A program made the position numbers and the translations under genes. The notes under the pieces are model-generated. The model ran no database searches and was not told where the DNA came from. It worked only from the letters and a program-made list of their open reading frames with translations. Shown here in pieces: positions 24,475 through 46,471 of a stretch of 64,000 nucleotides of DNA. How positions within the stretch are numbered: position 1 is the first letter of the stretch; each line of letters opens with the position of its first letter. Source of the DNA: a virus. Taxonomy: Duplodnaviria; Caudoviricetes. The stretch covers positions 1-64,000 of IMG/VR virus record IMGVR_UViG_3300032270_001157, one strand, 5' to 3'.

Positions 24475-24482
24475 TTGATTTC

Positions 24483-27400
24483 CTAGCAATTAACTGATTG
24501 TAATATCCAAGACCCATTAATAAAATTAAACATTCCTAAGTCTCCATTTGATACACTGAATCCCATGGGATTACCAAAAGTAGTTAAATATGAAATATCA
24601 ATTGTATTATTTGGGTCTTGATAAATATTATAAATAGATACTGAAGTATTTCCTTGAATAGTACCTGATGTAGTATAGGTTTTATTATAAACTGGTTCAT
24701 AGAAGCCATTTTGTCCATTATATTTACAGTATACTGGTGCTTTTCTTGGTGCTGGATTTATTCCAAGATTATCTTGTACAAATACTAATTTTCTTAAGCC
24801 TTCTGGTAATGGGTCATTAGTATATGAATCTTCTATAATAGCTCCCCTAGAAGGTTGTCTATTTACTAAATCAGTTTCAAGAACCACCCATACTGGTTTA
24901 TAATTAGCTCCTACTGTCCAAACACCAGCATTAGCATCCCATCTTAAATCAACAGGACCAACAGGCCATGTGCTAGGTAGTTGTCCCCAGCCTTTATAAA
25001 ACTGATGCTCCTTATAAGGCTCTGTCCATGTTCCATCAGGTTTTTGAGTTTGATTTTTGTATATAATTTTCCCGGTGACTCTATCTTTAACTATTTCTCC
25101 ATTAACAACTTTTGGCTCACCTGAAGCATTAGGTACTGGATAGCCCTCTAAATCATAACCCCATCCGTGAACCATCAACGGACCACGCAAACCAAAGTAT
25201 CTCATGTTATTGGCAGGAACAGTAGCAGGATTCATTCCTCTAAGACGAGTAAAATCCATGTAGTTTTGATCATAATCTAAAAAGCTACGTTCTATATTCT
25301 TAGAATATGCGGGCTTTAAGCCATTATCTCCTTCTGGTGCGGTTAAGCCCTGACCAATCAAATCTATACTATGACCAGTTAAATCATTTAATTGCCTATT
25401 AGGATAACTACTAAATTCTCCCACAGACATTAATACTGGATTTAATGTACCATAATTAATAATGGGGTTTCCACTTAATCCACTCACGGTGCCCAAATTA
25501 TTTTTACCAATTAAAGTCAAATCATCTCCACTAGCAAGAATATACGGAGGATTAGTTTCTTTGGGAGAAGCAGAGACTAGCTGCTTTTTAGTTTTATCTT
25601 CTATAGTTTCGCAAAATGGACAATCTACTGTTTTAGAGGTAATTGAATTTGTTATAGTATTAATATTTATATTAGAAGATGTAATAGAAGCATCAGGATC
25701 TATGAAATTATATGAATATTTTGCAGTTCCTTTGCAGAAAGGACATCCGGGCCTTGGATATTTGGTAATACTAAACGTAGCTCCGTGTGGAGTAGGATAA
25801 AATGAAATAGGAGATAACAAACCATCCAAACTCATCATGGATTTATTTGCGTAGCCATGTTTTAATTCCCTAGGAAGTTCTTGAACGTCTTGCAAAGAAA
25901 CATTGGTTGATTCTCTAATCATATTCTTAGGGTCATATGATATATTATTCGCCACAAAAGGCATCTTTGACCAACCGGGAGAATAATTCAAGTCTCTATA
26001 TATGTCTCCTATAGCACTATCAGGATGTACTATGGGAGAATTGGCACCAGCCAAAATTTCAAATGGGCTCCATTGATACATCTTAGGTTGTTGAGTATGA
26101 TTTAATATAGCATCAAAAATATTGCCAGGACCAGAATTTATCGATGAACCATACCGTGGACCATTATTTAGAGTGCCAAGAACATTTAATAAGCTGGTAC
26201 TAAGTTCTTTTCTTCTCTTCAGTGATTCTGCTCCAATAGCTTTGATTCGGTCAGCATTTTCTTTATTATAAAACCCTAATTTTCTAGTATAGGTTCTCAT
26301 ATTATAGTTGGTGGTGATACCTCCCTCACCCACCTGAACCTGAATACTACTAATAATAGGACCGCCAAAACCATCATTAGAAGAGGCTAGAGCATGTCCT
26401 AAATTAAAGGCTTTTCCAGCTAGATTCAATAAGATTGCTCCTGGAACTTGAATAGATCCCTGCTCGGTAGTTTGCTGATAATTAACATCGTCTTTAATTT
26501 TTGCCATCACAGCAGCATCTAAAGCGTCCATTCCTCCATAATTCCAAGGAACCAATCCAGCATCATGGTTAACTTTAATTCCACCTACTAAATTATTAAC
26601 ATCATTAGAGGGGTTTGTTCGTCCACCAAAAATATTATTTTCTATTAAACCAGGATGATTAGTCCAAGGTCCATAGGTAGCTAAAACGCTCTCAACAGGA
26701 ATAGCAGCAAAAAATGGATTTGCTGCTTTATTTAAAACAGAAGTATTCTCTGAGGATTCGTTGGTAATTTGTCCACCATTAGAACCAAAAAGAATTTCAA
26801 TAGTTGAACTATCATTAAACCTATGCATGATTAAAGATCTAGCATCCATATACACATAGTCTGGATAAGGATAGCGTCTTAGGCCACCATGAGTAGTTTG
26901 TCCAGCTGCTAGTGGATTAATCATAGGAGTTGGTATCGATGATCCTTTAACTACCTTATTCAAAGCATCTCCTTGCATTATATGAATCAAACCAACATCT
27001 TCAAAATTTCTATGATTTCCAATATAAACTGGAGAAGATACCGATATTACTACTCTTAATTCAGCTTCTGGTTCTAAAAACACAAAATCTTGTTGACAAG
27101 AAGCCTTAGTATAAGTTTTATAAACTTTATCTTGAGGCATTGGTTTACCGTGAGCTGTTGCATAACTAATAGAAGGAACTCCTCTATATGGTATATCTAC
27201 ATATTCTTCTGCTGGTAAAGAATGATGGATAGAAGTATAATAGTTATTTCTTTCGTCTGTAGCAGAAGTAGCGTTCCTACCATTCAATAGAGCAACCCAA
27301 TCGGTCATAATATGACTACCACAATCTGCGCTATTAATTAGACTAGCAGCCATAATATTTTTTTCTGCTACCCATTTTTCTCTACAATTAACTTCTGGAT

Positions 27401-29933: not shown

Positions 29934-29944
29934 AATTTATCCTA

Positions 29945-31621
29945 TTAAGGGTCTGTTATACACTTCACCCATTCCCATGATTTAATCTTAGTGAAACGTC
30001 CTTCGCTCACATTCCAATTAGATTGATCCGCTTTTACATAAGCTCTTACACCACGAACGTCTGGATTATTTGTTAAATTGGTTGGATTAAAACTTTCTAC
30101 TATTCCTGTAATAGCTTTATAATGTTCGATTGGAAATGTTAAATTTCTTAATCCGGTTGGTCTCGGTAATACTACTTCAAAAGTTACATTTCTATTAGAA
30201 GCACTAACTGTGCCAAGGTCTTGTAAAATAGGGCCTAGTTTTCTTCCTAATACAAAAATAGACGCAACAAGAGGTAAAGCAAAACCATCTTCAATAGATA
30301 ATGTTTCGCTAATTGAACCAGCAATAAGATTAAGAGGTCTATTATTAAAAGACCAACTATAAGTAATAGTTCCTTCTGAGGGATTCATTCCTTCTGTGAT
30401 TGTTACTGGAATTGGATTTAAATTAGCTTCATATCTTGTAACAGCAGGATTGAATGTACTAAAAGCATTAGTGAAATTAAAACCACCAGTACTAGCAGTA
30501 GTTAGTGGGGCCGGAGTAGTTGTTGTTGGAGTATTACGAACATTATATGCAAAACCAGCAGCCCTATTATACATAGCCATTTTGATACCGCTATAACCAC
30601 TAACAGCATAGTAAAATTTTGTACTAGTATTATTATTGAATTTCAGAGTGTTGTTGTTATATAGATCCGCGATAGAACCACTCAGAGACCCAGATAAATA
30701 AGGAGCATTATTAACATTGTATATATTTCCACTATTAAAAGGCTCTAATCCCTTAACTGTCCCATTAATAGTTACAGTTCTTAACATAGAAGTATCTAAA
30801 GTACTTTCTACAGTAAAGGTCTCTGTATATGGTTTTAGTCCAGTACCAGAAGGCACTCCCAACCAATTATCTGTAATTTTATAAGATCCCTCAGTATCAC
30901 TAGAACTGATACTTCTGACAAAATTATACAAAACTAGTCCACTAATCATTCCACTATATTTAACACTATTATTTAACTGATAATTAACCCAGTCTTTAGC
31001 ATTTTTAACAGGACTATCTCCCGATACCATGCCTCCAGTTCCAGTTGGAACAAATTTACCAACTGCTCCTAAAGTTCTAGAAATACGATAGAACGGATAA
31101 TTTGAACCAACACCAAATTCTATATTGCCTCCATAGCCTAATAATGCAGCATTTAGTGGGGATTTAGCAAAAGAATTCTCTTCTAGTGTCTCTATGCTCC
31201 AATCATCTTGGGTGCTACTAACATAAAATATTCCACTACCAGTATTCATTACTTCTGATTGTAATTCAATACTATAGTCTATGGTGGTGGTCCAATTATC
31301 ATCTGTGCGACTGGCCGCATATTTATTTATTTTAATACCAGAATATATTGTGGTGGTACTTCCGCAACCTATAGTTAAAGTCTGACCATCACTAGAAAAA
31401 GCGTTTCGTAATCCGCTTTCTAGTACCAACAAATGATTAAAACCAGCATTACCACTACCAGTATAAATTTTACCTTCTAAAGAAATAGATACCAGAGCAC
31501 CAATTGGTCTACCAGCACCATCTCTTTGTTGATCTCTAGAAATACCCACAAATGGAACAGGATATCCACTAACTCCGGAAAAACTAAAGCCCCCGTACTG
31601 TATAAATGCTGATGTTGCCAT
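29945..31621 (-). CDS. Putative distal tail (Dit-like) protein
   Basis: Lies downstream of the TMP. Repeated tube-like beta motifs (ISLEGKI, YSIELQ, GTITYSWSF). Confidence 0.45.
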   Translation of the reverse strand: MATSAFIQYGGFSFSGVSGYPVPFVGISRDQQRDGAGRPIGALVSISLEGKIYTGSGNAGFNHLLVLESGLRNAFSSDGQTLTIGCGSTTTIYSGIKINKYAASRTDDNWTTTIDYSIELQSEVMNTGSGIFYVSSTQDDWSIETLEENSFAKSPLNAALLGYGGNIEFGVGSNYPFYRISRTLGAVGKFVPTGTGGMVSGDSPVKNAKDWVNYQLNNSVKYSGMISGLVLYNFVRSISSSDTEGSYKITDNWLGVPSGTGLKPYTETFTVESTLDTSMLRTVTINGTVKGLEPFNSGNIYNVNNAPYLSGSLSGSIADLYNNNTLKFNNNTSTKFYYAVSGYSGIKMAMYNRAAGFAYNVRNTPTTTTPAPLTTASTGGFNFTNAFSTFNPAVTRYEANLNPIPVTITEGMNPSEGTITYSWSFNNRPLNLIAGSISETLSIEDGFALPLVASIFVLGRKLGPILQDLGTVSASNRNVTFEVVLPRPTGLRNLTFPIEHYKAITGIVESFNPTNLTNNPDVRGVRAYVKADQSNWNVSEGRFTKIKSWEWVKCITDP

Positions 31622-31642
31622 AATTAGTCCTGTAATTTATTC

Positions 31643-34600
31643 CTAGTTCAAATACAATGGATCACTACCAATATGATTCAACTGATTAATTTTTGCTGTG
31701 GCTGACCAAATGGCAGTATATCCTGCTGCTCCACTAGCTACGATACTTAATCTAGGAGGATTAGAGTCAACAACTTGTGTACCAATTGACATGCCAGCAG
31801 GCATAGTGTCTCCATATGTTCTGGTAAGTTCTGTTCCCAATTTAGAAAATCTAATACCACTAGCTGTTCTAATAAGGGCACCTTCGATAAAGATTCCAGC
31901 GCCATTTCTAGTAGCATTTGGATTAACAGAACTAGAACTACCTAATTGCCATAATGCAGAGATATCTATCTTGTAAGTCCAAACTCTATCATATTCATAA
32001 CTTGTAGCATCAGAGAAAGCACTTAAATTAATGCAATTTGCTGTTGTTTCTGTGGTCACAACAGTACTACCAACTGCTGGTTTTGTCCAATCAGTTACTA
32101 GTGGTCTAACTTGTCCACCGTCTGTAGTGCGAGTTCTAAGATAATATTGAGCATATTGTGAGGAGCCGTTATACTTCTCATCAGATGCCTTAATTGATCC
32201 GCCAGCAAAAACATGGTTATGTCTAGTTTGTGTGACTTGTGGTTTATAACCAAATTCTATACCTCTTACACTATTGGGATCATTAGCTATTGTTTGATTT
32301 TGATAAACTTTTAATCCACTAGAGCTAACCCAAGCGTCTCCTCTCCAAATTAGCATGGTGCCATCATTATTGGCTCCCATATTAGTGCCATCAGTTAACT
32401 TGCTACTAAGTCCAATATCTACTCTAAAGGAAGCATCTCCTTGTGAGGTATATGTAATATTCATTGGATATAAACCAGAAAATTGTGTTTTCAAGTCTAT
32501 ATCACTAAAGCGTAAATTACCAAACTGGTCGGTTCTTAAATAATAACCAGAGGCAGTGGCACCCTCTCCGATTTTTAAACTCTTGAACCATGCTTTACCA
32601 TTGGCATAAAGAACAACTCCACTGCTATTTGAATTAGCAATATCTGATGATGAAGCATTGATAGTCACGGATCCAGTTGGACTAATGTGAAAACCTATGC
32701 GATTATTTAAAGAACCAGAGTTGATGACTGAAAATTTATTTCCAAGTCCACGATTATTAAATACTGTATCAATACTATCGGTAGAACTTAAAATGATATT
32801 GTAGAAACTATCTGGGATATTAGTAAACAAGCTGTCATAAGATACAATTCCAGTAGCTCCTAAAGCTAAAGTTTGCTGAGAATTAATCCATCTTATACTA
32901 GTATTTCCAGTAGCCCATGAGTTTTCGTTGGCGAAAATAATGCTATTAGCTCTTGTTGCAGCCGAGTTGAGCCTACCACTATTATTAACAAATAAGAATG
33001 TTCCAGTGAGACTGGGAGGTAAATTAACTCCACTATTAACAGTGAAATTATTAAAGGTTCCTGAGTTACCACTTACGTTATGGAAATCAATTCTTTGATG
33101 ACCAAAATTGGTATCTAATAGAACTCTAGCAAATTCAACTCCGCCACTACCCCTAACTCTTAGTCTGTATGTTGACGCTTCATCATTAACAAAGACACCA
33201 GTAGAAGTAATATAAAATCCATTATTTCCACCAAGGTTGAAATTCATTTGTTTAGTGCTGGGACTATATAGTATTTCAGAAATACCACTAGCTACTTTAT
33301 CATTAACTCTATACATTAACCCAGTATCTGTACCAGAGATTCTCACAGGTAGCTGCCATGTTCCAACACCATTAGTGTTAGTTGTTAATACATAAGCATC
33401 TGGAGCAGAGAATCCGACTCTAAGAGATGAGGTCGTTGTTAATCCACTAACTGCTAGGTCAGAAGTGGGATTATCAGTATTGATACCTACTCTATTAGAA
33501 TTAAGACCGATATTTAAAACACTAGTAGCATCATTGCTAGACTTAACAACAAAATTATCCTGTACGGCCCCTGAATTAAAGACCACCTTATCATTGTCTA
33601 ATATCATCTTATTAGAATTATTAGTACCCATATATAGAGTATTATCAGCTAGTCCACTAATGTTATATCCTATTACAACATTACGAACGCCAGAAACATT
33701 ATTATTATAACCCACAATAACGCCACTACTATATAAGTATGTGTTATTCGTTCCAACAACTATATTATTAGAACCATAGATTGGGTTGGTTTCAGTTCCA
33801 CCAGCACCACCTAATCGCTGATATGGCATTACTAAACCACTAACTATAGTTGTGTTGGGACTATTATTATCATCAAAAGCATTATTAACAGAATAATAAC
33901 CATTTGCTCTATCTATTGCTACAGGGGCTCCGATAGATATTGTGGTAGTGTTATCAATACTATTTTCTACTACATTAGAGATTTCTCTAACAAATGTATT
34001 ATTAACAGATGGTGGACTTTGAACACAAAGTAAAATCTTGTCTCCCACCAAATACTTGGATGTAATTCCTAGTGTTGGTACAGTGATATTAAGACCAACA
34101 CTATCTACAACACACTGATTTCTTGTGGACCCTAAAGTATTTTCACGACCATAAACGATATTATTGATACCGTTCAATTTATTTGCTGTACCTATTATGA
34201 TGCCACTAGACACCATTTGATTATAGCCTACAACAATATTACCACTACCAAATACGTCCATTTTTGTGTTTGCAGTATTAAAGACCATAGATTCTTGGCC
34301 TACTACTGCTATCTTTGATCCAACAGTTCCTATCTGATCTCCAACTAAGAAGTTTGAGTTACCGATAGCATAAGCATTAGAAGCATTCTTTAAATTATTA
34401 TAGGAACCAATGGCGCTAATATTAGATCCAGATGCAACATTCTTGTTTCCTAAAATTACATTACTATTACCAGACTGTGCTAAATTGTTAATACCAACAA
34501 TGATGGAATTATTTACTGTCCCAGCTGTTCTACTAGGGTTGCCGCTAATAGCGCCTACCGAGTTAATATAGACACCAGTTTGATTATTTAGTATACCTAC

Positions 34601-35986
34601 GACTAAGTTATTATTGCTAGTTGGAGGAACAGCATTGATACTACCTAATACTAAATTATTACTAACTGTACCACTTAAATTATTAGTATTGCCTACTACA
34701 AGAGAACCATTAATATCTCTAAGAACATTAGCCTGACCAATTAATAATAGTTGGGATGGCGCACCACTAGCAAGATTATTATTAATACCTAAAAGAATAC
34801 TTTGATCAAGACCAGAATTAGTAGCGTTACCTAGTCCGATAACAATAGACTTGGTAGTATCTTGCAGATTGATATTATTACCAACAAAAATACCACTAGA
34901 AATATTAGTGAGTGTTTGATCAGAACCGATACAGATTAGCTTGGTGCCGGTAATTACGTCTGAGCTACCATATACTTTATTAGAATTTCCACTTAGACTA
35001 ACATTAGAACCTACAACACTATTATCGTTACCAAGTAAACTATTAACATTTCCAATATAAATATTATTGTTGCCAGTATTGCTGACATAAGAACCTAACA
35101 CAACACCAGAAGCGCCAGAACTCACACCAACCTGAACTAGTCCAACGCTAGTAGAAGTATTCAGACTATTATTACTTCCTAAAAGAATATTATAATTGCC
35201 AGTAATACTACTAGAATTACCAACAAAAATATTGGATAATCCACTAAGATTAACCGAATCACCCAAAGCAGTATTATTTGCACCAATTAACCTAGAGTTA
35301 TTTACTAGAGCAAAAACTTTGGCTCCATTAAAATAATTTGAACTACCGATAACGATACCAGTATTAGATATTCCTGTGTTACTTGAACCGATATTTGTTA
35401 ATCCTACTCCCGTTACAGCATTACTAACACCTACTACTGTATATGTATAGCCGGATACGCTATTACTACCACCAAGAATTACGTTTCTTAAATTAGCACT
35501 AAATACAGGCTTATTGGTTCCTTTATCATCAACAGTAAATAATATTTCACCACTAGTAGATCCGGTAACAGGATCAAGAATCTTGGACATGATCTGTCCA
35601 TAAACAACCTCATTATAGTTAGTATCTCGACCGGCTAAATTAACAATAGCAGGATAACTACCAGAAAGTGGAGTAGTTTGTGGATTATGCACTAGTAATA
35701 GAGTTACGCCGGTAGGGCAGTTTGTGATACTCTCTACAATCAAACCATCTTTTGAGCATGGAGCTACAACGTGTAATACAGCATCGGGTAATCCTGTTCC
35801 AACTCCTAGTCTACCGGTAGAAGCATCAAAATATACTAATCCATTGCCGGTGCCACGAATACTAAAATCAATATCTTGTTTAAGAGCATTAAAAGAAGTA
35901 CTAATACCAGAAGTTTCTGATAATATAATTGATGGATTAACACCAGAACCAACATATAGTGTACCAGATACTGTTTGACTACTCAT
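31643..35986 (-). CDS. Tail fibre/adhesin with YadA-head-like Gly/Asn repeats
   Basis: Long run of (I/V)xxGxxN repeats at about 33690-35500, plus GRLGVGT..P and RVGINT..P fibre motifs. Confidence 0.7.
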   Translation of the reverse strand: MSSQTVSGTLYVGSGVNPSIILSETSGISTSFNALKQDIDFSIRGTGNGLVYFDASTGRLGVGTGLPDAVLHVVAPCSKDGLIVESITNCPTGVTLLLVHNPQTTPLSGSYPAIVNLAGRDTNYNEVVYGQIMSKILDPVTGSTSGEILFTVDDKGTNKPVFSANLRNVILGGSNSVSGYTYTVVGVSNAVTGVGLTNIGSSNTGISNTGIVIGSSNYFNGAKVFALVNNSRLIGANNTALGDSVNLSGLSNIFVGNSSSITGNYNILLGSNNSLNTSTSVGLVQVGVSSGASGVVLGSYVSNTGNNNIYIGNVNSLLGNDNSVVGSNVSLSGNSNKVYGSSDVITGTKLICIGSDQTLTNISSGIFVGNNINLQDTTKSIVIGLGNATNSGLDQSILLGINNNLASGAPSQLLLIGQANVLRDINGSLVVGNTNNLSGTVSNNLVLGSINAVPPTSNNNLVVGILNNQTGVYINSVGAISGNPSRTAGTVNNSIIVGINNLAQSGNSNVILGNKNVASGSNISAIGSYNNLKNASNAYAIGNSNFLVGDQIGTVGSKIAVVGQESMVFNTANTKMDVFGSGNIVVGYNQMVSSGIIIGTANKLNGINNIVYGRENTLGSTRNQCVVDSVGLNITVPTLGITSKYLVGDKILLCVQSPPSVNNTFVREISNVVENSIDNTTTISIGAPVAIDRANGYYSVNNAFDDNNSPNTTIVSGLVMPYQRLGGAGGTETNPIYGSNNIVVGTNNTYLYSSGVIVGYNNNVSGVRNVVIGYNISGLADNTLYMGTNNSNKMILDNDKVVFNSGAVQDNFVVKSSNDATSVLNIGLNSNRVGINTDNPTSDLAVSGLTTTSSLRVGFSAPDAYVLTTNTNGVGTWQLPVRISGTDTGLMYRVNDKVASGISEILYSPSTKQMNFNLGGNNGFYITSTGVFVNDEASTYRLRVRGSGGVEFARVLLDTNFGHQRIDFHNVSGNSGTFNNFTVNSGVNLPPSLTGTFLFVNNSGRLNSAATRANSIIFANENSWATGNTSIRWINSQQTLALGATGIVSYDSLFTNIPDSFYNIILSSTDSIDTVFNNRGLGNKFSVINSGSLNNRIGFHISPTGSVTINASSSDIANSNSSGVVLYANGKAWFKSLKIGEGATASGYYLRTDQFGNLRFSDIDLKTQFSGLYPMNITYTSQGDASFRVDIGLSSKLTDGTNMGANNDGTMLIWRGDAWVSSSGLKVYQNQTIANDPNSVRGIEFGYKPQVTQTRHNHVFAGGSIKASDEKYNGSSQYAQYYLRTRTTDGGQVRPLVTDWTKPAVGSTVVTTETTANCINLSAFSDATSYEYDRVWTYKIDISALWQLGSSSSVNPNATRNGAGIFIEGALIRTASGIRFSKLGTELTRTYGDTMPAGMSIGTQVVDSNPPRLSIVASGAAGYTAIWSATAKINQLNHIGSDPLYLN

Positions 35987-35998
35987 TATAGTTACTCC

Positions 35999-38900
35999 TT
36001 ATGTTCGGAGCACTCCTTCTGTTTGAATTGCTAGTTTGTTCATGGCTACATTTACTTCACCTAAGATCATTCTCTGAATAGGCTCTTGCATATTAGCGAA
36101 TGCTGCTCCTCCATTAATAACAACCTCTACCTTGTGTGTGCCTTGAATAGTAATCTGTGGTGGTAAGTTAAGTGCTGCAAGTTGACCAATAAATTTATTG
36201 AATGTGTTAGTAAATTGGCTTAATCCATCCATATTTGGATTATTTGAGCCAGTATTATTAGATACACTATTTGTGGTACCTGAGGATAGTTGTTTTTGGT
36301 AATCGGACAGCATGGAAACTGCTAGTTGTAGGCTATTTGTGAACTGTTTGGTAGTTTGTGATAGAGATATAAATATTTGACCTAAATTAAACATACTACC
36401 ACTCCTAACTCCAGGTATTCCTCCTTCGGATAAATAAGCCATACCACCACGACTCATATGATTGACGCCACCATTTATAGATTGTAGTAATGGTAGATTT
36501 TGCTGGGTGGCTTGACGATTAACAACAAATTCTCCCGGAGTCAACATTGCTGGGATAGTATCAGTTCCGCGAGGCTGATAGTTAACTAAAGTTCCACGGG
36601 AAGCATAAATCATACCACCAGAGCTACGAAATGCTGGGTTACCAGCTGCTACTTGTGGATATAAAAAGCCTACAGTATTATTAATATTAAAAGGAGCTAA
36701 TCTAGCAGCATTATCTTCATCACTATTTTGTGGATTAATATAACCCATCTTAGTTAATTGTTTACTAATATTATTTTTTAGCATGGCTTGTTGGGCTCGG
36801 TTCATCCCTTGTCCTCTTGCAGCCATTCTATCAATACTGCTAAAATTTCTTAATAGCTTAGAAAATGTTTTTTCTTGAGCTTTTTCTAGTTTTTTACGCT
36901 CATCCATATTACCTTGAAGATAAGTATCTCCATTATTAATTCTTAAAGCTAATGCTTCAATTTGATCTGGATTCATTCTTAATATAGCAATATCTCTAGC
37001 GCTATATTTGTAATTACCACCAGATGTTTCCTGACTCATTGCTTGAATTAATGCTTCAGCTTGATCTGGAGTAAATGGATGGAATAAATCTTGTGCGGCC
37101 CCTGCTGATAATCCGTACTGAGTTAGTAGCTTTTCATCTATCTTGTTACTACCGGTTAAATTAAACTTTTTCTTGAGTTTGGATAAAGCCTGTTCTCTCC
37201 AACCCATAAAAGCTTCTGGACTAGTAAACTTATTGGGGGCTCCCATGCCCACAGCTTGTCCAACTGCTAACTCTAATCTGAATCGTTTAGCATTAGCCCT
37301 ATTTGATGCTGCAATCTGTGCTTTATTAGCGTCCTGCTCTTGCTTTTTCCCGTGCATTTTCCACTGTTGATCTCTTTCTCTCATGGGCACATCAACAGCT
37401 ATCATTCTATTTAATTTAATAATTTCAGAATTAATCTGGTCTCTTTCTCTAAGCAATCTTTCTTTATCTTTTTTCTGCTCCTCTGTCATATCCGCAGGAT
37501 CAACAAAAGAGTACTGTTCTAGTTCTAGTTCTTTGTCTTTTTTCTTCTTGTTTAAAGATTGAGTTTGTTTATTAGGATCAACAGTTTGACCAGACTTTAA
37601 TTTAACTGGTCCCGGTGTTGCTGGTTGGTGAACCCATCTATTGGCTTCTCTCTGATTTTCTGCTTGATTTCTGATTCTATTTGCTGTATCTACTTTATTT
37701 TTACCCCTTTGAGCAGAAGCTGTGAGGCCGTAGGTGTCTCCCGGCATTGATGTATCTGTTGCTACAGTAGCAGCGTCAACATCTCTTCCGTCTATTCTAA
37801 ATACTGAAGAACTAGCTCTGGCTTGAACTCTCTGATTTTCTAGTTCTTGTTCTCTTTTTCTCTCTTGAGCAGCTTGTTCGGCTTGTTTTTTCTCTTCTAT
37901 TTTAGCTATTCTAGCTTCTTCACTCGCTGCGTGTTGTCTCTCTAAATACTGTTCTTGAGCACTAACCGCTGATTGGAATACCTCATTAGTACTATGTGTA
38001 TTCCGGCCTTTGACTACTTTTCGATCACGCCCAAAAGGTACTGAAATAGTATCTTCACTATTTAAACTATCATAAATATTAGATATCTGTTGATCTATAA
38101 ATGCTTGTGTCATTAAATTGCCAACAGCGTCTTTGCGAGGTTTTGCTCCCTTTTGTAATCTTCTGCTTTCTATGTTAAATTCTGCTAATCTTTCAGCATC
38201 TCTTCTGTCCATTACATTTAATTTAAATTCAGCTAGTGGATCATCAGCACTGCTAGATATAGTACTATTTTTGAGCATTCGGTCAGTATTGTTGTTAGAA
38301 GTGTGCATCTTTTTTGCATCACCATACAATCCAACAGTTTCTTGTGTCAGCATATTTGCAGAAGCTATTAAGCCTGCTGTTGCTGGATCCAAACCAAATC
38401 CCATGTAGTATCCTGTGGTCAAACCTAATTGACTAAAATTCCCTAATTGTGTATCCAACATAGTTCCTTGTTGAACACCAGTAGCTCGACCAAGCAGAGA
38501 GTGAGCACCAACATCTCCCATAGTTTCCCCAGTACCTGTAACCACCCCCAGAACAGTATTTACTGCTCTATTTCTACCAGTCTTATTAGGATCAGCCATG
38601 GCTCCACTGATAGCTCCAAAAGTTGGACCTATTAACCTACCAACATAAGGAGCAGCCATTCTTGCAGCGCCAGAGGCTTGAGTGCCTATGTATTTTAAAG
38701 CTGTTGTAGAGGCTGCTCTAGGATTTTTAATAGCAGAACTAATATTAGAACCAACACTCTTAACTCCTTGATAAAGATTATCTAAGCCATCCATAGTGCT
38801 AGTTAGCCATCCTGGAAGTTTGGGACTTTTATAATTACTAGCCATTTCCAAAGCCCCTTGACTAGAATAAGCTCCTCGTTGACTAGTAGAGTTAATCCAG

Positions 38901-41900
38901 TTTCGGTAGTTGTCAAGCCATGCTTTTGCTCTTGGGTCTGTTGGTGCCATTTCTTCAACTTTTTTAACCTTATTAGCAAAATCAGACATATAATTAGCTA
39001 TGGTTGAATCCCAAGTATCGGCGAGCGGATCCATAGTTCCACCTGATAAATAAACCACTCCACCCTTAGCATAATTACCAGCATTAATACTCTTGAGCAA
39101 TGGCAGATTGCGCTGAGTAGCTTGTCTATTAACTACAAACTCACCCGGAGTTAACATTGCAGGAACAGTATCAGTTCCTCTTGGTTCATAATTTACTAAG
39201 GTTCCACCAGCAGCATAAACTGGACCACCTTGTGATCTTGTCATAACAGTGCCGGGTCTGGCCAATCCCAAGTTTTGATTATTAGTCTGAGCTCCATTAA
39301 AAGCATTGGTTAATTTATCTAAAGCTGAGATCAAAGCTGTATTAGCAGTATTTAATATTTGACCCTGTTTTTCTAATAATGGATTAATAGCTCTTTGAGT
39401 AGCTTCTCCCAATGCCATTTGCTGTTGTTTGTATAAATTTTCTAGAGCTTTAATTTGTGGGTCTTGTGCTGGAGCGGCCCTTAGATTAGCAAGAATTTCT
39501 TTAAGGAAAGGATTATTCTCAACATTAAGACCTTGAGCCCGAGCAGTATTTTGGATTAAGTCTGCTCTTAAAGTGTTTGCTCTTTGCTTATCTGTAGTGT
39601 CTAAACCAGAAACTTGAATCATTTCGTTGAATAGACTAAAAGAATTTTTAGCATCAGCAGCAAAGGCATCCTGAGCAGCAGCCATAGCCTCTAAATTAGT
39701 ACCACCATCTTGAATAGTTTTTCTATAAGCTTGTTGAGCAGATATTGATTGGTTGATAGTGGTGATTTGACCATTTAGTGTTCTATTAAGAAGATCATAG
39801 GTGGAATTGAGATTTCTTAATTCTGTGGGGGTGCTGGTGACTAATTTTTCTCCAAAAGAAGCACCAGCTTGAGTACGACTTTCTCTTTCTTGTACTAGCT
39901 GACCAATTTTACTCAGGGTGTCTTGCATATCTTGCTTAATAAGATCTGGTAAACCCTCTAGCCCCTTTTCAGTAGCCTCAATTTGTCTATTTAAACTAGC
40001 AAGAGCATCTTTTTGTTTGGCTATAAGAGAGATTACGGCTGGATCTGCTAAGTTCCCTGAACTATTTAATCTTTCAATATTACCTTCTACAGAACTTCTC
40101 TGATTAATGAGCATGGTTCTTTGATTAGTCAAATTAGCAGCTGTTAAAGAACCGGGCTTAACACCAGCATTTATAGCCGCTTCTGTATATCTGCCTGCTG
40201 ATCTTTCTGTAAGAGATGTTCTACGTCCTTCTCCTAAGGCTTCTCTAAGAGATACCATGCTATCTGAAAGATAACCTTGTAAACTAGCAAACTTAGCAGT
40301 AGCTTGAGTTTGAAGTTCTGCTGCTTTTTGAACAGCATTACCATATGTATCTAAAGCTTTTTCGATAAAAGCATATTGTTTCATCATAGTGTCGAAGGCT
40401 TTTTTCTGAGAATCAATTAATTGCTTAAGCCCACCAACACTATCTATTAATGATTGAGGATCTAATACTCCGTCATTTTGTTTAATATTATCTTTAACAG
40501 CACCTTTTAATTGATTACGAATAGCATCAGAGATTCTATTATCTCCAAAAGTATTTATAAGCTGCTGAGTCAAATCTCTTGTAATATTTTCGCCTAATAC
40601 TTCACCACTAGCTCCGGTCTGTTGTGCTTGAACAGCAATTCTGGTTATAGTATCTTCAGCCGAAGCACCAAATGTAGATAGTCCCTCCACAAACTTTTTA
40701 TCTGTACCAAACATGCCGCTGACTTGACTAACTGCTGTTTGGCGTTCTCTTGCTGAGTAAGCATTAGGATTCTTTAATATGTCGGTAGATTGAAACTGCG
40801 TTTTGAGAGATACTTGACCACTAGCAATATCATCAATTCTTTGACTAGCTCTGTCTAATCCTGTTGTGGCTGAGTCTATAGCCTGATCCATATTCTCAAA
40901 AGTTTTAGCTATACTAACAGATGATAGATTTAATACTCTGGCAGATTGTTGTAGAGCTGTAACCCGTGCTCTTTCTGCTACCGTAGCTTGTAGTGTTGCT
41001 GTTTCTTCTTTAAAGTAGGTATCTATTAATTCTTTTTGTCTCTGTTCAATTTCTGCTCTGATTTGTGGATCTTGACCTGCTGTTTTCTTAAGAGCTTCCA
41101 ATTCTTGATTTTTAGTATTAAACTGCTTATTTGTTTGAGCGATATTAAGCTTTGCTAATCCTTGATCTCCACCAAAAGATGATAAAGCTTGCTCAATATT
41201 TAGTCCACTTTCAACTTTAGCGGCTAGTGTTTTTAGAGCTATCTCACCACCAACTTTTTGATTAGCAGTTTCTTCTTCTCCGATTTGTGCATTGGTTGGT
41301 CGTGAGGCTTTATAAAAACCAAATGAAGCAGCTTCTAATCCACGAGTAAGCATACTAGGCTGGCGTAGCTCTGCTTGTTTAGCTGATATTTTTTCTTCTT
41401 CAGCAGCAATATCCTTGAAGTTTTTAACTATCGAGGAGGTTAGAGCAGCATCTCTTGGATTCTTATTTAGTTTTTCTAACTGACCTTCTGCTGTAGTAGC
41501 ACTATTTTCTATTTTCTTTTTGCTTAAATCAATATCTGCTTCTTTAATAGCATTACGAAAACTATCAACAGCTAGTACAGTACCAGCTATTGCTCCTGCT
41601 AATGCTCCCCATGGACCAGCTTGTGCTCCTACAGCTATAGCTCCACCAAAAGCTGTACCAGCAGCAGCAACACCACGACCTGTGCTGCCCCCGACTGCTG
41701 CTCCAGCGGCTTCTGCTGCCATAGGAGCAGCAAATGCTAATGCTAAACCAGTATTCATATATGAAGCTCTACGATTTCTTTTAGCATCATATTGTGCTCT
41801 TTGAGCATCAGACATATTACCAACTTCTTCATCTGATGGTCCCATAACTTTACTTCTTAAAGAAGAAATGCTGCTACTGATAAAACCAGTAGTTTTAGAA

Positions 41901-44900
41901 GCAACACTTTGAACAGCTTGGAAGATAGTTTGTGTTTGTCGTGATGACTGAGCAACTTGTTGCGATGACTGAGCTGCTCTTTGTAGATTTTGATCAATAA
42001 TTCTAGCAGAAGCTGCTGCTATATCTGATGTGCTATCTCTTCTGGCTCCTTGAGGAAGAGGACCTATTAAAGTAGCATTGGAACGAGCAGTATCTATCCT
42101 ATTTTGAATATAGCTATCTGTAGCTACTTTTTGGCTATTCTGAGCATTTTGTCTAGCTTCTTGAAATCCCATTCCTTTAGATCTATTGAAATTTAAAGCT
42201 TGTTGGTAAATTGCGTCCCCAAACTGCTCTATTTCCATCATTACTTTTTGTATTCTAGCTTCAACATCTCCTGGATTTGCTGATCCACCTACATTAAATC
42301 TTTGTATTCCACGAACAGCACCACCAGAACGAAAGCCTAAAGCCTTTGTTGCAGCTTCACGAATAATGAAACTACCTACTGGTAACGATACTGGTCCAAT
42401 ACTATCACTAGTTCCTGATCCCGGACCCTTAAAAACACCAATACCTCCAGCAGAGAACGAACTCATTCCATTACGATCTGCTTGATTCATTTCTCTTAAT
42501 TTGCCATATCCTATTGCTTTTGCTGTCTCTGGTGGAACAAAAGCTTCTCCATTAGAAACCATAGCTGGAACATTTCCACCCGCTGCATATCCTCGCATTT
42601 TCTTGAAAGATTTTTGATCACTGTTAATCTCGTAATCTCTAACAGTGCGACCATCTTTCTTTGCATAGTCTGCAATTCTATTTTGTTTATTTATTATTGC
42701 TGCTCCAACTTTTTCTTGAATAGCAGAAGGCGGAGCTTTGTATGGTTTTAAAGAAACAGGCATAGGAATTGATCCTTCACCAAATCCTCCTACTTTCCAC
42801 TGCTCTCCATAACCACCGGGAACAGGAATTTGTTCCATAAACTGAGCTTCAGTTAAACCAGCCTTAATAATATCTTCTAGACTATACTTAAATCCTCCTC
42901 TTTGAATTAATTTTGGAGTTCCTCCTTCAGCAAACCTTTGAATAGCTCCACCACTCTTATATCCTTGAGTTTTTAGATAAGTAATAATATTATCTTCTAC
43001 TGTTGATGGTCCACTAATAGTTCTTTTTGCGTCTGTTGCTATATTGCCTGGAATACCAAAATATTTAGCTGCCCCTTTTAATCCCTGTGGAAAGTCCATT
43101 CCTTGACCCTTAAGCGCTCCTGGCCCACCGAGTTTCTGAATCATTTTTTCAAACAACACACCCTGAGCCGTAGCTTCTGCATTAGAATTGCCTGAGATTT
43201 TCCTATTTCCATAACGATATGCTTGTATGCCTTCTTTGGATCTTGCTCTTGCAGCTTTAATATTTCTAGCATCATCATCAACAAATAATGAGCCTGGACT
43301 TAATAACGCTGCTTTAAGTTTAGCTATTTGAGATCCAGATACTCCTGGTCCTCCTAGTCCCTTAAATTGGGTAAGGGGGATTGGAAGTCCCTTGCTAGAC
43401 AACCATTCTTGAACTAAGTCTAGGGTTGAAGCAGGTCGTGCTGTTATGAGTTTTAGATTGCTTAATAGCTCTGGTTTTTTAGATACGAGACCAGCTAATT
43501 CTTGTCCTAATGCGCTTAATTTGGCGCCCCTTAGTGCGGCCGATACCTTGTTTCTATCTCCAAACTCAGCAAACTTGGGAGTTCTTGGGTCAGATAAAAT
43601 CTTGTCGGCACCGAAGGCTAATGTTCTATCAAAGTCTAGATTTAATTCTTTGCCAAGACCAGTTTTAGCTAGAATATCAGCAATCATAACCTTTTTAGCG
43701 GCTCTTCCTGCACTTTTATTAAGGGAAGAATTAAAGGATTCTTCTATAGAACTAGCTACCGCAGGATCCATTATGCCACTAACAATTCTAACATCAACAG
43801 GAGCTTTAAGCTGATCAGAAGTGATTTTTTTATTGATTGGAGAGAATGGAGACCCTAACATACCAGCCGCCCCGAATAATAATCCCTTAGACGTTATTCT
43901 GGTTGTTCTGGCTTGTTGCGCTCCAGATAATCTATTTTGTTTTTTGGTGAATTCTGCTAGAATAGCTGCTTTACTTGCTGCTTGGGCTTCTGTTGGAGCG
44001 CGCTTATTTAATGTAGTATATACATCTGTTGCACTAATACCTCCAGCCTTAGCAGCTGTTTCTAGACCTAATAATTTAATGATTTCACTAGTTGTTGCTT
44101 TTTTACCAGATGTTGGGGTTACTACGCCAGCATCCGCAAATTTAGAAATTGATCCGCCACTAGCAAGATATTTTCTCATTTCTTGTGTGGTCTTTTTTCT
44201 ACCAGCTACATTCTCTAATTTATAAACACTTTTTTCTTCAAACCCCTTAATTAAATTAGTTGCATCTGCTTTACTTAAAACATTTTTAATACTTTTTGAT
44301 AACAGACCGGGCATAATCTTGCTGACATCATTAGCATCTGTATCATAAAATGTTGGATATGACGCAACAGAGTTTGCTAGTTCTTGTTGAATAGCAGGAT
44401 AGTTATTGTTTAATAATTGTTGAGCTATTGATGAGGACTGCCCTGTGAATCGATATTTTTTACCACCAGACTTTAATGTTTTAAATACATCCTTAGATCT
44501 AATATAAGAAGCAAGTTTACTACTCAAAACTCCTTGTAAATCTGGTGCCTTAGCCCAATTGCTGTTCCATGACTGTGGTAAATCTAAACCCATATTTGAA
44601 TATATGCCAGCAACGGATAATTGTTTTTTCTGTAAATACTTTTTCAGTTTAGGAGAAAAAGAGTCTGGTTCCAGTCTAGCGTCTAAATGAGTAAAATGAG
44701 TAGCTGATGATGTTGGGAGTTCTTGTTTTTTCTTTGCTGCTTTCCCTGCTCCAGCCCTGTTTAAATCATAAAGTCTGTTGAGCCCAATATTACGAACAGC
44801 CTTTTTGTTCATAACAAACTCTCCCGGCGTTAACATTGCCGGAACAACATCTCCGTCTCCATAACCCGGAACATGACCACCAGAAGCAAAGGCTCTAATT

Positions 44901-46471
44901 GGTCCACCTTGACTATTTCTATTGGGTCTCATTCCACCAATAAATCCTCTACTAAACTGACCTAGTGCAGATAATCCTCTTAATGCGAAAATAGCTCCTA
45001 AAGCTGGTAGTGCTCCTTTAGCAGCATCTGTGAGTCTAATTAAATTACTAGTTAAGTCTAAAGATAGTTTAACGAAGGATTGAAATCCAGAGCTTTGTCC
45101 AATAGATCGAACTAAACCTACAAATTCATTTCTTACTTTTGCCATTTGAACAGCTAATGATTGTTGTGCTGTTGCGGCATCAGTAGCTAAAGAGTCTTGT
45201 CCTGTTTGAGCAACTTTTAATGCTGCTTGGGCAGTTGCGAACTGTTGAATTAATGGAATCACCTTACCAATCTGACGAAAGCCACCAAGTTCTTCTACGA
45301 TTCTGGAGAACTTTAAATCTCTGGGGTCTAATTGAGATAATCCTTCGCTCAATCTTCTAACAGCCTCATATGGTCCAACGAACTTACCTTGTAAATCTGT
45401 TAATGTAACACCATATTCTTTAAGGGCATCGATTGTATCCCCTCTTTGAATTCTGGTAAAAATTGTTCTTAAACCAGTAGCAATGGTTTCGGCGCTTTCA
45501 CGAGTTGTAGCACGAACACTGGTGAACACAGCCATGAATTCATTTAGGGCTTGAGTACCTTCACTAACTCCCTTACTAGCTGTAGCAAACACACCACCGG
45601 TACGCTGAATAGCAGTAATAATGTCACCGGCTTCAACAGCAAACTTAGCAGCTACCGCATTTACTGAACCTAATGCTCGATCTAATTCGCCAGCACTAAT
45701 ACCGAACTGTCTCATCAATGCGATACTACCTTCTACGGTACTATTCAAGTTATCGAATGATGGAGCTAATGCACTAAGAGCCAAAGCTTTTAATGCCTTC
45801 TCTGTATCTCTAGCACTTAAGCCAGCCTGAGCCAATGTACTAGATACTTTAATTAATTCATTAGATGACACACCGAACTTAGTAGATAAATCAGTAATTT
45901 CGGCAACTAATCCACCAAGATTTTTAACTGATGTATCAGTAACCTGAGATACTCTAACCAATTCTTGATTAAAAGCAATAAAGTCTGTTGTTGCAGATGT
46001 TAGGGCGTTAGATACTTTATAAATCACTCCTGTTACTGTGGCAAAGGCGGCAAATCTACGAACAGCCAATGCTGACTGCTGACCAAACTCTCTAAATGCT
46101 GAAGTAGTCCCATGAACAGCAGCAGTAGCAGCAGCATTTTGTTGAGTTACATTTTGTGTGGCATTATTTATTTGTTGTAAATTAGCTGGTAAATTACCAG
46201 CACTATTATTAACTTGTTGTATAGCAGTCCCAAGATTTCTCAGAGATATTGCTGTAGCGTTTGCTGAAGCATTAGTGGCCTGTAGAGTATTATTAAAAGC
46301 TCTAAAAGTTTGATTAAGAGCACCGATATTGCGGGCCACACCGGGATCCAAGCGAACATTAACATTAGCATTAATAGTTCCTAGTTGTCGCCTAATATCG
46401 GCAACAATAGTCCTAATGTTAGATGGTCCTCGTAAATTTAACTCAGCTGTAAGATTAAAACCTCTAGCCAT
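35999..46471 (-). CDS. Tail tape measure protein (3490 aa) with cargo domains
   Basis: N-terminal TP901-type core (ELVRVSQVT, LAQAGLS, ATTRESAETIATGLRTI), a Gly/Ala-rich hydrophobic segment at about 41570-41760, coiled-coil regions and repeated PAMLTPGEFV modules. Confidence 0.92.
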   Translation of the reverse strand: MARGFNLTAELNLRGPSNIRTIVADIRRQLGTINANVNVRLDPGVARNIGALNQTFRAFNNTLQATNASANATAISLRNLGTAIQQVNNSAGNLPANLQQINNATQNVTQQNAAATAAVHGTTSAFREFGQQSALAVRRFAAFATVTGVIYKVSNALTSATTDFIAFNQELVRVSQVTDTSVKNLGGLVAEITDLSTKFGVSSNELIKVSSTLAQAGLSARDTEKALKALALSALAPSFDNLNSTVEGSIALMRQFGISAGELDRALGSVNAVAAKFAVEAGDIITAIQRTGGVFATASKGVSEGTQALNEFMAVFTSVRATTRESAETIATGLRTIFTRIQRGDTIDALKEYGVTLTDLQGKFVGPYEAVRRLSEGLSQLDPRDLKFSRIVEELGGFRQIGKVIPLIQQFATAQAALKVAQTGQDSLATDAATAQQSLAVQMAKVRNEFVGLVRSIGQSSGFQSFVKLSLDLTSNLIRLTDAAKGALPALGAIFALRGLSALGQFSRGFIGGMRPNRNSQGGPIRAFASGGHVPGYGDGDVVPAMLTPGEFVMNKKAVRNIGLNRLYDLNRAGAGKAAKKKQELPTSSATHFTHLDARLEPDSFSPKLKKYLQKKQLSVAGIYSNMGLDLPQSWNSNWAKAPDLQGVLSSKLASYIRSKDVFKTLKSGGKKYRFTGQSSSIAQQLLNNNYPAIQQELANSVASYPTFYDTDANDVSKIMPGLLSKSIKNVLSKADATNLIKGFEEKSVYKLENVAGRKKTTQEMRKYLASGGSISKFADAGVVTPTSGKKATTSEIIKLLGLETAAKAGGISATDVYTTLNKRAPTEAQAASKAAILAEFTKKQNRLSGAQQARTTRITSKGLLFGAAGMLGSPFSPINKKITSDQLKAPVDVRIVSGIMDPAVASSIEESFNSSLNKSAGRAAKKVMIADILAKTGLGKELNLDFDRTLAFGADKILSDPRTPKFAEFGDRNKVSAALRGAKLSALGQELAGLVSKKPELLSNLKLITARPASTLDLVQEWLSSKGLPIPLTQFKGLGGPGVSGSQIAKLKAALLSPGSLFVDDDARNIKAARARSKEGIQAYRYGNRKISGNSNAEATAQGVLFEKMIQKLGGPGALKGQGMDFPQGLKGAAKYFGIPGNIATDAKRTISGPSTVEDNIITYLKTQGYKSGGAIQRFAEGGTPKLIQRGGFKYSLEDIIKAGLTEAQFMEQIPVPGGYGEQWKVGGFGEGSIPMPVSLKPYKAPPSAIQEKVGAAIINKQNRIADYAKKDGRTVRDYEINSDQKSFKKMRGYAAGGNVPAMVSNGEAFVPPETAKAIGYGKLREMNQADRNGMSSFSAGGIGVFKGPGSGTSDSIGPVSLPVGSFIIREAATKALGFRSGGAVRGIQRFNVGGSANPGDVEARIQKVMMEIEQFGDAIYQQALNFNRSKGMGFQEARQNAQNSQKVATDSYIQNRIDTARSNATLIGPLPQGARRDSTSDIAAASARIIDQNLQRAAQSSQQVAQSSRQTQTIFQAVQSVASKTTGFISSSISSLRSKVMGPSDEEVGNMSDAQRAQYDAKRNRRASYMNTGLALAFAAPMAAEAAGAAVGGSTGRGVAAAGTAFGGAIAVGAQAGPWGALAGAIAGTVLAVDSFRNAIKEADIDLSKKKIENSATTAEGQLEKLNKNPRDAALTSSIVKNFKDIAAEEEKISAKQAELRQPSMLTRGLEAASFGFYKASRPTNAQIGEEETANQKVGGEIALKTLAAKVESGLNIEQALSSFGGDQGLAKLNIAQTNKQFNTKNQELEALKKTAGQDPQIRAEIEQRQKELIDTYFKEETATLQATVAERARVTALQQSARVLNLSSVSIAKTFENMDQAIDSATTGLDRASQRIDDIASGQVSLKTQFQSTDILKNPNAYSARERQTAVSQVSGMFGTDKKFVEGLSTFGASAEDTITRIAVQAQQTGASGEVLGENITRDLTQQLINTFGDNRISDAIRNQLKGAVKDNIKQNDGVLDPQSLIDSVGGLKQLIDSQKKAFDTMMKQYAFIEKALDTYGNAVQKAAELQTQATAKFASLQGYLSDSMVSLREALGEGRRTSLTERSAGRYTEAAINAGVKPGSLTAANLTNQRTMLINQRSSVEGNIERLNSSGNLADPAVISLIAKQKDALASLNRQIEATEKGLEGLPDLIKQDMQDTLSKIGQLVQERESRTQAGASFGEKLVTSTPTELRNLNSTYDLLNRTLNGQITTINQSISAQQAYRKTIQDGGTNLEAMAAAQDAFAADAKNSFSLFNEMIQVSGLDTTDKQRANTLRADLIQNTARAQGLNVENNPFLKEILANLRAAPAQDPQIKALENLYKQQQMALGEATQRAINPLLEKQGQILNTANTALISALDKLTNAFNGAQTNNQNLGLARPGTVMTRSQGGPVYAAGGTLVNYEPRGTDTVPAMLTPGEFVVNRQATQRNLPLLKSINAGNYAKGGVVYLSGGTMDPLADTWDSTIANYMSDFANKVKKVEEMAPTDPRAKAWLDNYRNWINSTSQRGAYSSQGALEMASNYKSPKLPGWLTSTMDGLDNLYQGVKSVGSNISSAIKNPRAASTTALKYIGTQASGAARMAAPYVGRLIGPTFGAISGAMADPNKTGRNRAVNTVLGVVTGTGETMGDVGAHSLLGRATGVQQGTMLDTQLGNFSQLGLTTGYYMGFGLDPATAGLIASANMLTQETVGLYGDAKKMHTSNNNTDRMLKNSTISSSADDPLAEFKLNVMDRRDAERLAEFNIESRRLQKGAKPRKDAVGNLMTQAFIDQQISNIYDSLNSEDTISVPFGRDRKVVKGRNTHSTNEVFQSAVSAQEQYLERQHAASEEARIAKIEEKKQAEQAAQERKREQELENQRVQARASSSVFRIDGRDVDAATVATDTSMPGDTYGLTASAQRGKNKVDTANRIRNQAENQREANRWVHQPATPGPVKLKSGQTVDPNKQTQSLNKKKKDKELELEQYSFVDPADMTEEQKKDKERLLRERDQINSEIIKLNRMIAVDVPMRERDQQWKMHGKKQEQDANKAQIAASNRANAKRFRLELAVGQAVGMGAPNKFTSPEAFMGWREQALSKLKKKFNLTGSNKIDEKLLTQYGLSAGAAQDLFHPFTPDQAEALIQAMSQETSGGNYKYSARDIAILRMNPDQIEALALRINNGDTYLQGNMDERKKLEKAQEKTFSKLLRNFSSIDRMAARGQGMNRAQQAMLKNNISKQLTKMGYINPQNSDEDNAARLAPFNINNTVGFLYPQVAAGNPAFRSSGGMIYASRGTLVNYQPRGTDTIPAMLTPGEFVVNRQATQQNLPLLQSINGGVNHMSRGGMAYLSEGGIPGVRSGSMFNLGQIFISLSQTTKQFTNSLQLAVSMLSDYQKQLSSGTTNSVSNNTGSNNPNMDGLSQFTNTFNKFIGQLAALNLPPQITIQGTHKVEVVINGGAAFANMQEPIQRMILGEVNVAMNKLAIQTEGVLRT
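36480..36625 (-). repeat. TMP internal repeat copy (TLVNYQPRGTDTIPAMLTPGEFVVNRQATQQNLPLLQSIN)
   Basis: Near-identical in protein to the copy at about 39085-39230. More diverged copies lie at about 44800-44890 and 42350-42590. Confidence 0.9.
39085..39230 (-). repeat. TMP internal repeat copy (TLVNYEPRGTDTVPAMLTPGEFVVNRQATQRNLPLLKSIN)
   Basis: See the partner copy at about 36480-36625. Confidence 0.9.

Follow-up and report, generated by a model that had tools for sequence, protein, structure and literature searches.

Why should a phage tape measure protein (TMP) be punctuated by repeated pairs of GG motifs, and what do these motifs separate? The question is raised by the IMG/VR virus record IMGVR_UViG_3300032270_001157, a contig of 86,428 bp rated 58% complete, of which bases 1-64,000 (the whole stretch that was analysed, hereafter called the window) carry the TMP gene. 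The source is an uncultured, marine-type phage, and no close relative of it was found among 50,697 deposited phage genomes. A sequence-only reading of the window had proposed that the TMP is a modular polyprotein, in which paired GG linkers delimit unrelated globular segments and act as protease sites, as recombination joints, or as both. From the analyses described below, we concluded that the protein is probably a giant, cassette-built TMP, in which an iterated module shared with gpH, the TMP of phage lambda, is the recombination joint that fences the segments, including a cassette with a HAD fold.

The gene is a single uninterrupted open reading frame (ORF), the stop codon being included in its coordinates (Table 1). 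The range first proposed for it, 35999-44920, lies within this ORF, but its upper bound was too low; it spans only the last 2980 residues and cuts off the N-terminal 511. The assignment as a TMP was borne out by matches to PF10145 (PhageMin_Tail; aa 191-384, E = 1.2e-24, 87.7 bits against a cut-off of 33.2) and TIGR01760 (tape_meas_TP901; aa 151-460, E = 5.5e-23, 81.5 bits against a cut-off of 28.8), as well as to phrog_28 and phrog_167 (both tail length tape measure protein), and the C-terminal region resembles lambda gpH. The ORF is a genuine giant TMP, and belongs to a large uncultured family having a head domain of ~510 aa, an iterated module of ~65-75 aa and a tail of ~140 aa.

All eight paired and both single GG motifs proposed earlier were recovered from the translation of the ORF at the predicted places. 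We compared their numbers with those in 2000 composition-preserving shuffles of the protein. Ten GG pairs with a spacing of 5-13 residues were observed against a mean of 1.4 in the shuffles, none of which reached ten; [FYL]xxGG was observed 13 times against 3.7 (0/2000), and the total number of GG was only mildly enriched (36 versus 26). The pairs are therefore real. Six of the eight turned out to be the N- or C-terminal flanks of a longer conserved module rather than mere linkers, and the other two, at aa 767-783 and 1171-1184, stand alone. The motif PAMLTPGEFV is found in exact form three times (modules M1, M3 and M4) and in degenerate form twice (PAMVSNGEAFV and GPVSLPVGSFII).

The module is ~65-75 aa long and present in five copies, which score 53-119 bits against its profile. 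The copies were identified by fragment-versus-fragment BLAST and alignment; this was needed because self-BLAST of the whole TMP returned the identity hit only. Over 795 copies, the consensus reads [KR][AS]xGG-hh-[YF]AxxG, followed by 8-10 variable residues and GTDTVPAMLTPGEFV, from which it continues into [VI]N[KR]xAT..L[GP]L..L..IN and then xGG-VVYL-xxGG. The core of this consensus is GTDTVPAMLTPGEFVxN, followed by a helix, and positions G39, E40, F41, V42, P33, D30 and N60 are 91-99% conserved. Such conservation marks a small structured element rather than a linker, and on this evidence the module appears to be a folded or oligomeric element.

We ran the five-copy module profile against 1.84 billion cluster representatives (50%-identity clusters), and obtained 14,189 representatives at E<=1e-3, with 615 of them reaching 1e-30. 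The best 150 of these matches are proteins of 935-7872 aa having 3-11 copies in the same layout. In these giants the median start of the first module is aa 512 (interquartile range 501-554). The last copy sits a short fixed distance from the C-terminus with a strand and a helix after it; this distance is 138 aa here, has a median of 145 aa among the giants and comes to about 65 aa for the IMG/VR relatives. Pfam, NCBIfam and PHROGs hold no model for the module, the sole match being to phrog_35029 (unknown function) on three stretches; for an element matching ~14,000 representatives, the lack of a Pfam or NCBIfam model is an annotation gap. The Pfam family Tape_meas_lam_C was rejected as a candidate for the module, as it covers gpH 627-701 instead. 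A richer module profile found one copy in gpH, at 729-782 (20.7 bits), downstream of Tape_meas_lam_C. Among all PDB chain sequences, significant matches were obtained only in phage tape measures, namely mycobacteriophage Douge gp16, matched twice (E = 1.7e-6), and JBD30 gp46 at 1016-1066 (E = 2.5e-3). A tblastn search with one module copy matched 159 cultured-phage records (90 from Gordonia and 28 from Mycobacterium, plus Brevundimonas, Nodularia, Burkholderia, Ralstonia and Shewanella), and the feature under the match was a tape measure protein in every listed annotated row. Many Gordonia phages have two match places per record, and these phages with two module copies, Howe and Clark being examples, are possible laboratory systems. 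Judged by these matches, the module is homologous to a single element of ordinary TMPs that lies about 70-150 residues from the C-terminus.

These data also bear on whether the GG pattern could have arisen from chance or low complexity, or as a by-product of a recent internal duplication that has no function. Over 49 aa, M3 is 82% identical to M4, so that a recent exchange must have taken place at least once. Nevertheless, no shuffle had as many pairs as the protein itself, the module is kept in about 14,000 protein clusters as well as in lambda and actinophage TMPs, and the nucleotide differences between the cores of different copies often leave the peptide unchanged (seen in the alignment, not counted). 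We therefore rejected this explanation, the probability of which is practically negligible.

Evidence on the role of the modules as joints came from a near-identical phage, L059 (JGI 3300043504, Ga0480319_0000020, 199,419 bp), which has the same tail genes, of the same sizes and with 93-96% amino acid identity. Its TMP (P0024) has 4808 aa against 3490 here, and is thus 1318 aa longer. The two proteins are 92% identical over residues 1-575 of both, and the identity stops just past the LxxhN of module 1. Residues 576-771 of the present TMP (196 aa) and 576-1303 of P0024 (728 aa) are unrelated. Homology is back at the stand-alone pair YLASGGSISKFADAG, where 772-1185 aligns with 1304-1749 at only 49% identity. 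The other stand-alone pair, YKSGGAIQRFAEGG (1171-1184), is single here and present in two copies in P0024, with ~225 extra residues between them, and residues 1165-3353 are 78% identical to 1959-4213 of P0024. M4 (3275-3352) is a chimera of P0024 modules 5 and 6: 34 of 37 nucleotides in its upstream part are like module 5 and 64 of 67 in its downstream part are like module 6, and the 453 aa that lie between these modules in P0024 are absent from the present TMP. All the breakpoints (aa 575, 772, 1171-1184 and inside M4) fall in a GG motif or in a module.

Other relatives gave a similar picture. The TMP of L007 is 55% identical in its N-terminal domain (this domain being 92% identical in P0024), and is unrelated in the segments S1 and S3. 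In the pairs P0002/P0003 and P0005/P0006, collinearity ends at a module end. When all pairs of the 150 giants were compared, 61% of the 15,637 internal ends of high-scoring segment pairs (HSPs) were located in a module or up to 15 aa from one, where 13% were expected, although such ends are not independent between related pairs. The order of the slots is conserved (head, S1, tandem module, S2, S3 and extras towards the C-terminus), and the tandem module pair recurs in many relatives in the slot of M2a and M2b. No family was found for the extra cassettes of P0024 and P0111, for which Pfam returned only PF10145. The part of the sequence-only reading that took the motifs for recombination joints between mutually unrelated and polymorphic segments thus stood up to the alignment of related TMPs. 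These alignments show that modules fence segments of different kinds and that blocks of homology between relatives begin and end at modules. They also show that, through unequal recombination between modules or GG pairs, segments were gained, lost and exchanged in a phage with ~95% identity elsewhere.

We then consider the cassette S1b, which recurs as a GG-pair-fenced unit in five other giants (fetched as DNA). The motifs DFDRT, ITAR, K and FVDDD are conserved in the 6 homologues, with S in place of the T of motif II in one, so that the four catalytic motifs of the HAD superfamily (DxDxT, S/T, K, DD) are present in order. AlphaFold2 (AF2), supplied with the cassette alignment, gave a model with a predicted local distance difference test score (pLDDT) of about 90 over aa 939-1091. 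The Foldseek matches that were examined are HAD-superfamily phosphatases or carriers of a HAD domain, with a probability of 1.00 to PSPH, AphA and Lem4, and VIA-align superposed the model on the T4 Pnkp 3'-phosphatase (5uj0_B) with Z 11.6 and a root-mean-square deviation of 3.0 A over 126/142 residues, and on AphA with Z 10.8. A search of the ESM Atlas gave viral DUF2608/HAD clusters only at 0.77. The model, the superpositions and the Foldseek matches agree on a Rossmannoid HAD core, and aa 939-1091 is accordingly predicted to be a HAD-phosphatase fold with four catalytic motifs. The proposal that the TMP contains globular segments therefore holds for at least one of them, this enzyme fold being part of its globular cargo.

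Two further stretches of the cassette were noted. Three short helices at its start (window 43920-44090, aa ~795-850; pLDDT 80-86) weakly resemble a helix-turn-helix of the LacI type (PDB sequences, E = 0.33), PF00356 was matched at 0.026 in one homologue, and the A4 profile gave only the weak LacI-type match against PDB sequences. The stretch after the HAD core (window 42962-43198, aa 1092-1170) is conserved in six homologues with the motif QG.L.E..I..LGGP..G.DFP.GL..AAKYF..TD.KRT, and its model is of low confidence. A related-locus search with the S1 cassette returned no locus.

What the module does can be approached through the TMPs of known phages. In gpH, the matching stretch reads FATGG .. 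PAGIVHRGEFVFTKEATSRIGVGNLYRL .. YATGG, and after it come a VVINxxG strand and a terminal helix, an order shared with the relatives of the present TMP. The lambda protein differs in having one copy, 853 aa and no enzyme cassette, and the consensus residues N60 and D30 are not kept. During maturation gpH loses ~14 kDa from its glycine-rich region, the exact site and the protease being unknown, and the removed fragment (gpHC) starts in the Gly-rich stretch at the N-flank of the module (PMC12617516). From this mass we computed a cut near residues 710-725, inside ASGG(718-721)..FATGG(733-737), whereas cutting after the module would release a fragment of only 7.4 kDa. The equivalent of gpHC here is M4 together with the C-terminal tail. 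The TMP of T5, pb2, is also processed; it is cut after R1127, and the freed C-terminal piece starts AEGGMMY..GTEVV, like the N-terminal half of the module, and carries a muralytic peptidase (PMC10038345). By eye, the T5 residues AEGGMMYPG..GTEVVTP that follow R1127 look like the module sequence [KR] followed by [AS]xGGhh[YF]..GT[DE]xV. However, two module hidden Markov models (HMMs) run against pb2 with filters off gave no significant match, and we rejected homology as a result, keeping the resemblance as a lead only; pb2 also differs in having a single cut and 1219 aa. With this visual likeness counted for T5, the only two mapped maturation cuts of TMPs lie at or next to an equivalent element.

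The same module occurs once or twice in JBD30 gp46, Douge gp16 and the TMPs of Gordonia and Mycobacterium phages; these proteins differ in being 1158-1699 aa long with at most two copies, and no cassette exchange has been described for them. The module region is unresolved in the cryo-electron microscopy maps of JBD30 and Douge (PMC11445458; PMC13033339). The 5002-aa TMP of Thermus phage P23-45, gp96, is fused to the virion RNA polymerase and carries this working enzyme into the host (PMC10770324). We found no module copy in gp96 with filters off and E<=10, its enzyme is N-terminal and not fenced by joints, and its architecture is unrelated; it is a functional analogue only (a giant TMP with an enzyme) from a different family. 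Piuri and Hatfull reportedly described in 2006 TMPs with embedded cell-wall hydrolase motifs (TM4 gp17 and SPbeta-type), a precedent for the delivery of TMP-embedded enzymes at infection. Those enzymes are muralytic, whereas repeated joints fence the present cassette, whose HAD phosphatase fold is closest to those of T4 Pnkp and AphA.

The lambda and T5 cuts would fit a true polyprotein, in which each module or GG pair is cut at tail maturation or ejection, either autocatalytically or by a protease of phage or host origin. The head domain, the enzyme cassette, the segments that form channels and a plug like gpHC would then be freed as separate proteins and leave the tail in order. Consistent with it, about 65% of the occupied copies have K/R and A/S at module positions 8-9, just ahead of the first GG. 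In one relative, L027 (IMGVR_UViG_3300028025_003610, 13361-14425), M23/LytM-type motifs (..YAHLS.. and ..GDHLHFE..) lie between the last module and the C-terminal helix, the M23 domain being in the same position as in T5 pb2C, and in several myophage structures TMP cleavage was inferred from a 6-fold body and a 3-fold C-terminus (PMC11972413). However, cutting in lambda is assembly-dependent and takes place near the tip, whereas internal modules would sit far inside the lumen of the tube. Conservation extends over all 75 aa of the module, with the helix and the D/E/N positions, far beyond the need of a cleavage site, and the T5 resemblance is without statistical support. No natural gene fission at a module was found in about 55 loci. 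PF02902, PF03412, PF14464, PF01551, PF04586 and PF00574 had no match on the 58%-complete contig (PF00770, adenain, was not searched), and Pfam and PHROGs revealed no protease domain in most of the tail-module proteins, which were those examined. The analogy with adenovirus and African swine fever virus proteases drawn earlier has no backing here, the better one being the maturation cleavage of gpH and pb2. We consider a polyprotein of this kind unlikely, and cutting of the internal copies, argued from analogy, similarly doubtful; for the last copy, we lean towards a gpHC-type cut, again by analogy.

The modules could instead be uncut structural joints, that is, oligomerisation or docking knots made of beta strands between Gly turns plus a helix, which bind the tube or hub or keep the three or six chains aligned with each other; the intact chain would then set a tail of ~0.5 um, and recombination at the joints would only tune its length. 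The conservation pattern suits a small folded or oligomeric element, and the modules always lie within one ORF. For the residues of gp46 that match, the authors of the JBD30 structure predicted a hook made of a beta hairpin and two helices, with a cleavage site at its end, and proposed that it binds the baseplate core (PMC11445458). That the giant TMP of P23-45 defines an extraordinarily long tail (PMC10770324) is in line with this explanation, and it weakens the earlier argument that a tail of ~500 nm would be too long and that much of the protein may be cargo. On the other hand, the HAD-fold cassette and the replacement of 196 aa by 728 aa in phages with tail genes 95% identical are hard to read as parts of a ruler; the 1318-aa difference would mean a difference of ~200 nm in tail length between near-identical phages, and lambda and T5 do cut at this region. 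We regard uncut joints as a real possibility, although not the one that we favour.

The favoured reading, a cassette-built TMP with the module as recombination joint, has to be set against several observations that count against it. For M4 with the tail, AF2 modelling of the monomer (42-row alignment) reached a pLDDT of 58, low in confidence and too poor for a fold search. The HAD assignment rests on fold and motifs: none of the 6 members matched a Pfam HAD family at E<=1 (LNS2 was matched at 0.052 in one), and we therefore speak of a HAD-fold domain with intact motifs rather than of a member of a named HAD family. A folded HAD domain would fit the tail lumen poorly, and its storage may be in an unfolded state. 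The dependence between HSP ends and the purely visual likeness of T5, which the HMMs did not detect, belong here as well. Finally, to speak of free cassette shuffling would be an overstatement, as the slots largely keep their order and many of the differences are gains, losses or allele replacements within it.

Table 1. Features of the TMP and its GG motifs (window positions, strand and residue numbers)
Feature	Window position	Strand	Residues (aa)	Remarks
Whole TMP ORF	35999..46471	(-)	3490 aa (P0001)	PF10145, TIGR01760, phrog_28, phrog_167
N-terminal TMP domain	44939..46471	(-)	1-511	profile matches; common to 140 of ~200 related giant TMPs
Module M1	44702..44938	(-)	512-590	SQGG..FASGG..VPAMLTPGEFV..LYDLN
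Stand-alone GG pair YLASGGSISKFADAG	44123..44173	(-)	767-783	P0024 homology resumes here, 49%
Cassette S1b	42962..44116	(-)	786-1170	unit conserved in at least five other giant TMPs, GG-pair fenced
Predicted HAD-fold phosphatase-like domain	43199..43657	(-)	939-1091	AF2, Foldseek, VIA; motifs DFDRT, ITAR, K, DDD
Stand-alone GG pair YKSGGAIQRFAEGG	42920..42961	(-)	1171-1184	two copies in P0024 flank extra ~225 aa
Tandem degenerate modules M2a + M2b	42257..42622	(-)	1284-1405	copies 1284-1344 and 1338-1405
Segment S2	39260..42256	(-)	1406-2404	helix-former composition; 78% identical to P0024
Module M3	39032..39259	(-)	2405-2480	best-scoring copy
Segment S3	36650..39031	(-)	2481-3274	homologous in only 10 of ~200 relatives; absent from L007 TMP
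Module M4	36416..36649	(-)	3275-3352	82% identical to M3 over 49 aa; chimera of P0024 modules 5 and 6
C-terminal tail	36002..36415	(-)	3353-3490	after last module
SQGG/FASGG			520-532	
LASGG/FADAG			769-783	
YKSGG/FAEGG			1171-1184	
FRSGG/FNVGG			1380-1396	
SQGG/YAAGG			2413-2423	
YAKGG/LSGG			2467-2478	
SSGG/YASRG			3283-3294	
SRGG/LSEGG			3340-3351	
Single YAAGG			1295	
Single FSAGG			1339	

The segments S2 and S3 are rich in helix formers, and S2 holds a Gly/Ala-rich hydrophobic stretch (aa ~1570-1640, window 41552-41764) that is typical of TMPs; judged by composition, S2 and S3 are likely the ruler or channel part. An ESM Atlas search with S3 gave no lead. The gene order around the TMP (~346, ~97 and ~290 aa, TMP, large proteins) recurs in L059-L063, and Pfam and PHROGs, run on most of the tail-module proteins, gave no family for the neighbours of the TMP. 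Downstream of it lie four very large ORFs (window 16465-35986; 1447, 558, 1816 and 2674 aa). The first three had no Pfam match and are conserved in size in L059, and none of the four had a match in PHROGs. An ORF of ~4034 aa, without a PHROG match, occupies window positions 57188-64000 and runs past the window end, continuing to L003:1-5292; collagen-like and Mtd_N/BppU-like fibre matches were observed in genes near this ORF, upstream of the tail-tube region. The much longer contig of the near-identical phage L059 would give the missing ~40% of this genome.

In the favoured reading, the TMP would fill the tail lumen and exit ahead of the DNA, so that the enzyme cassette would be delivered to the host, while the long helical and hydrophobic segments would do the ruler or channel work. 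The primary role of the module, conserved from lambda, would be in TMP maturation or in hand-off at the tail tip; it would probably mark or present a cleavage site, dock in the hub, or do both, and its iteration would make the gene recombinogenic as a by-product. A bolder idea, which we hold to be rather improbable, is that the module is a self-contained maturation determinant that directs or catalyses the conversion of gpH to gpH*, and that each copy in a giant TMP is processed, the lumen then holding an ordered string of injected proteins. If this were true, the plug, the channel formers, the HAD enzyme and the other cassettes would be injected in order ahead of the DNA, and siphophage-like tails would possess a recombination-programmable system for effector delivery.

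How and where the lambda tape measure is cut has been open for 50 years (PMC12617516), and a conserved element at the place of the lambda cut in thousands of TMPs makes this question testable through a defined motif. The difference of 1318 aa between the TMPs of two near-identical phages shows how fast recombination at the joints alters the payload. An enzyme cargo within the TMP, here a HAD phosphatase fold nearest to T4 Pnkp and the class B acid phosphatases, would add to the one published case, that of an RNA polymerase fused to a TMP, and the iterated module suggests that exchangeable enzymes can travel as cargo in phage tails. As the module that the lambda ruler carries once is present here five times and fences exchangeable segments, the tail of this phage may deliver ready-made protein cargo.

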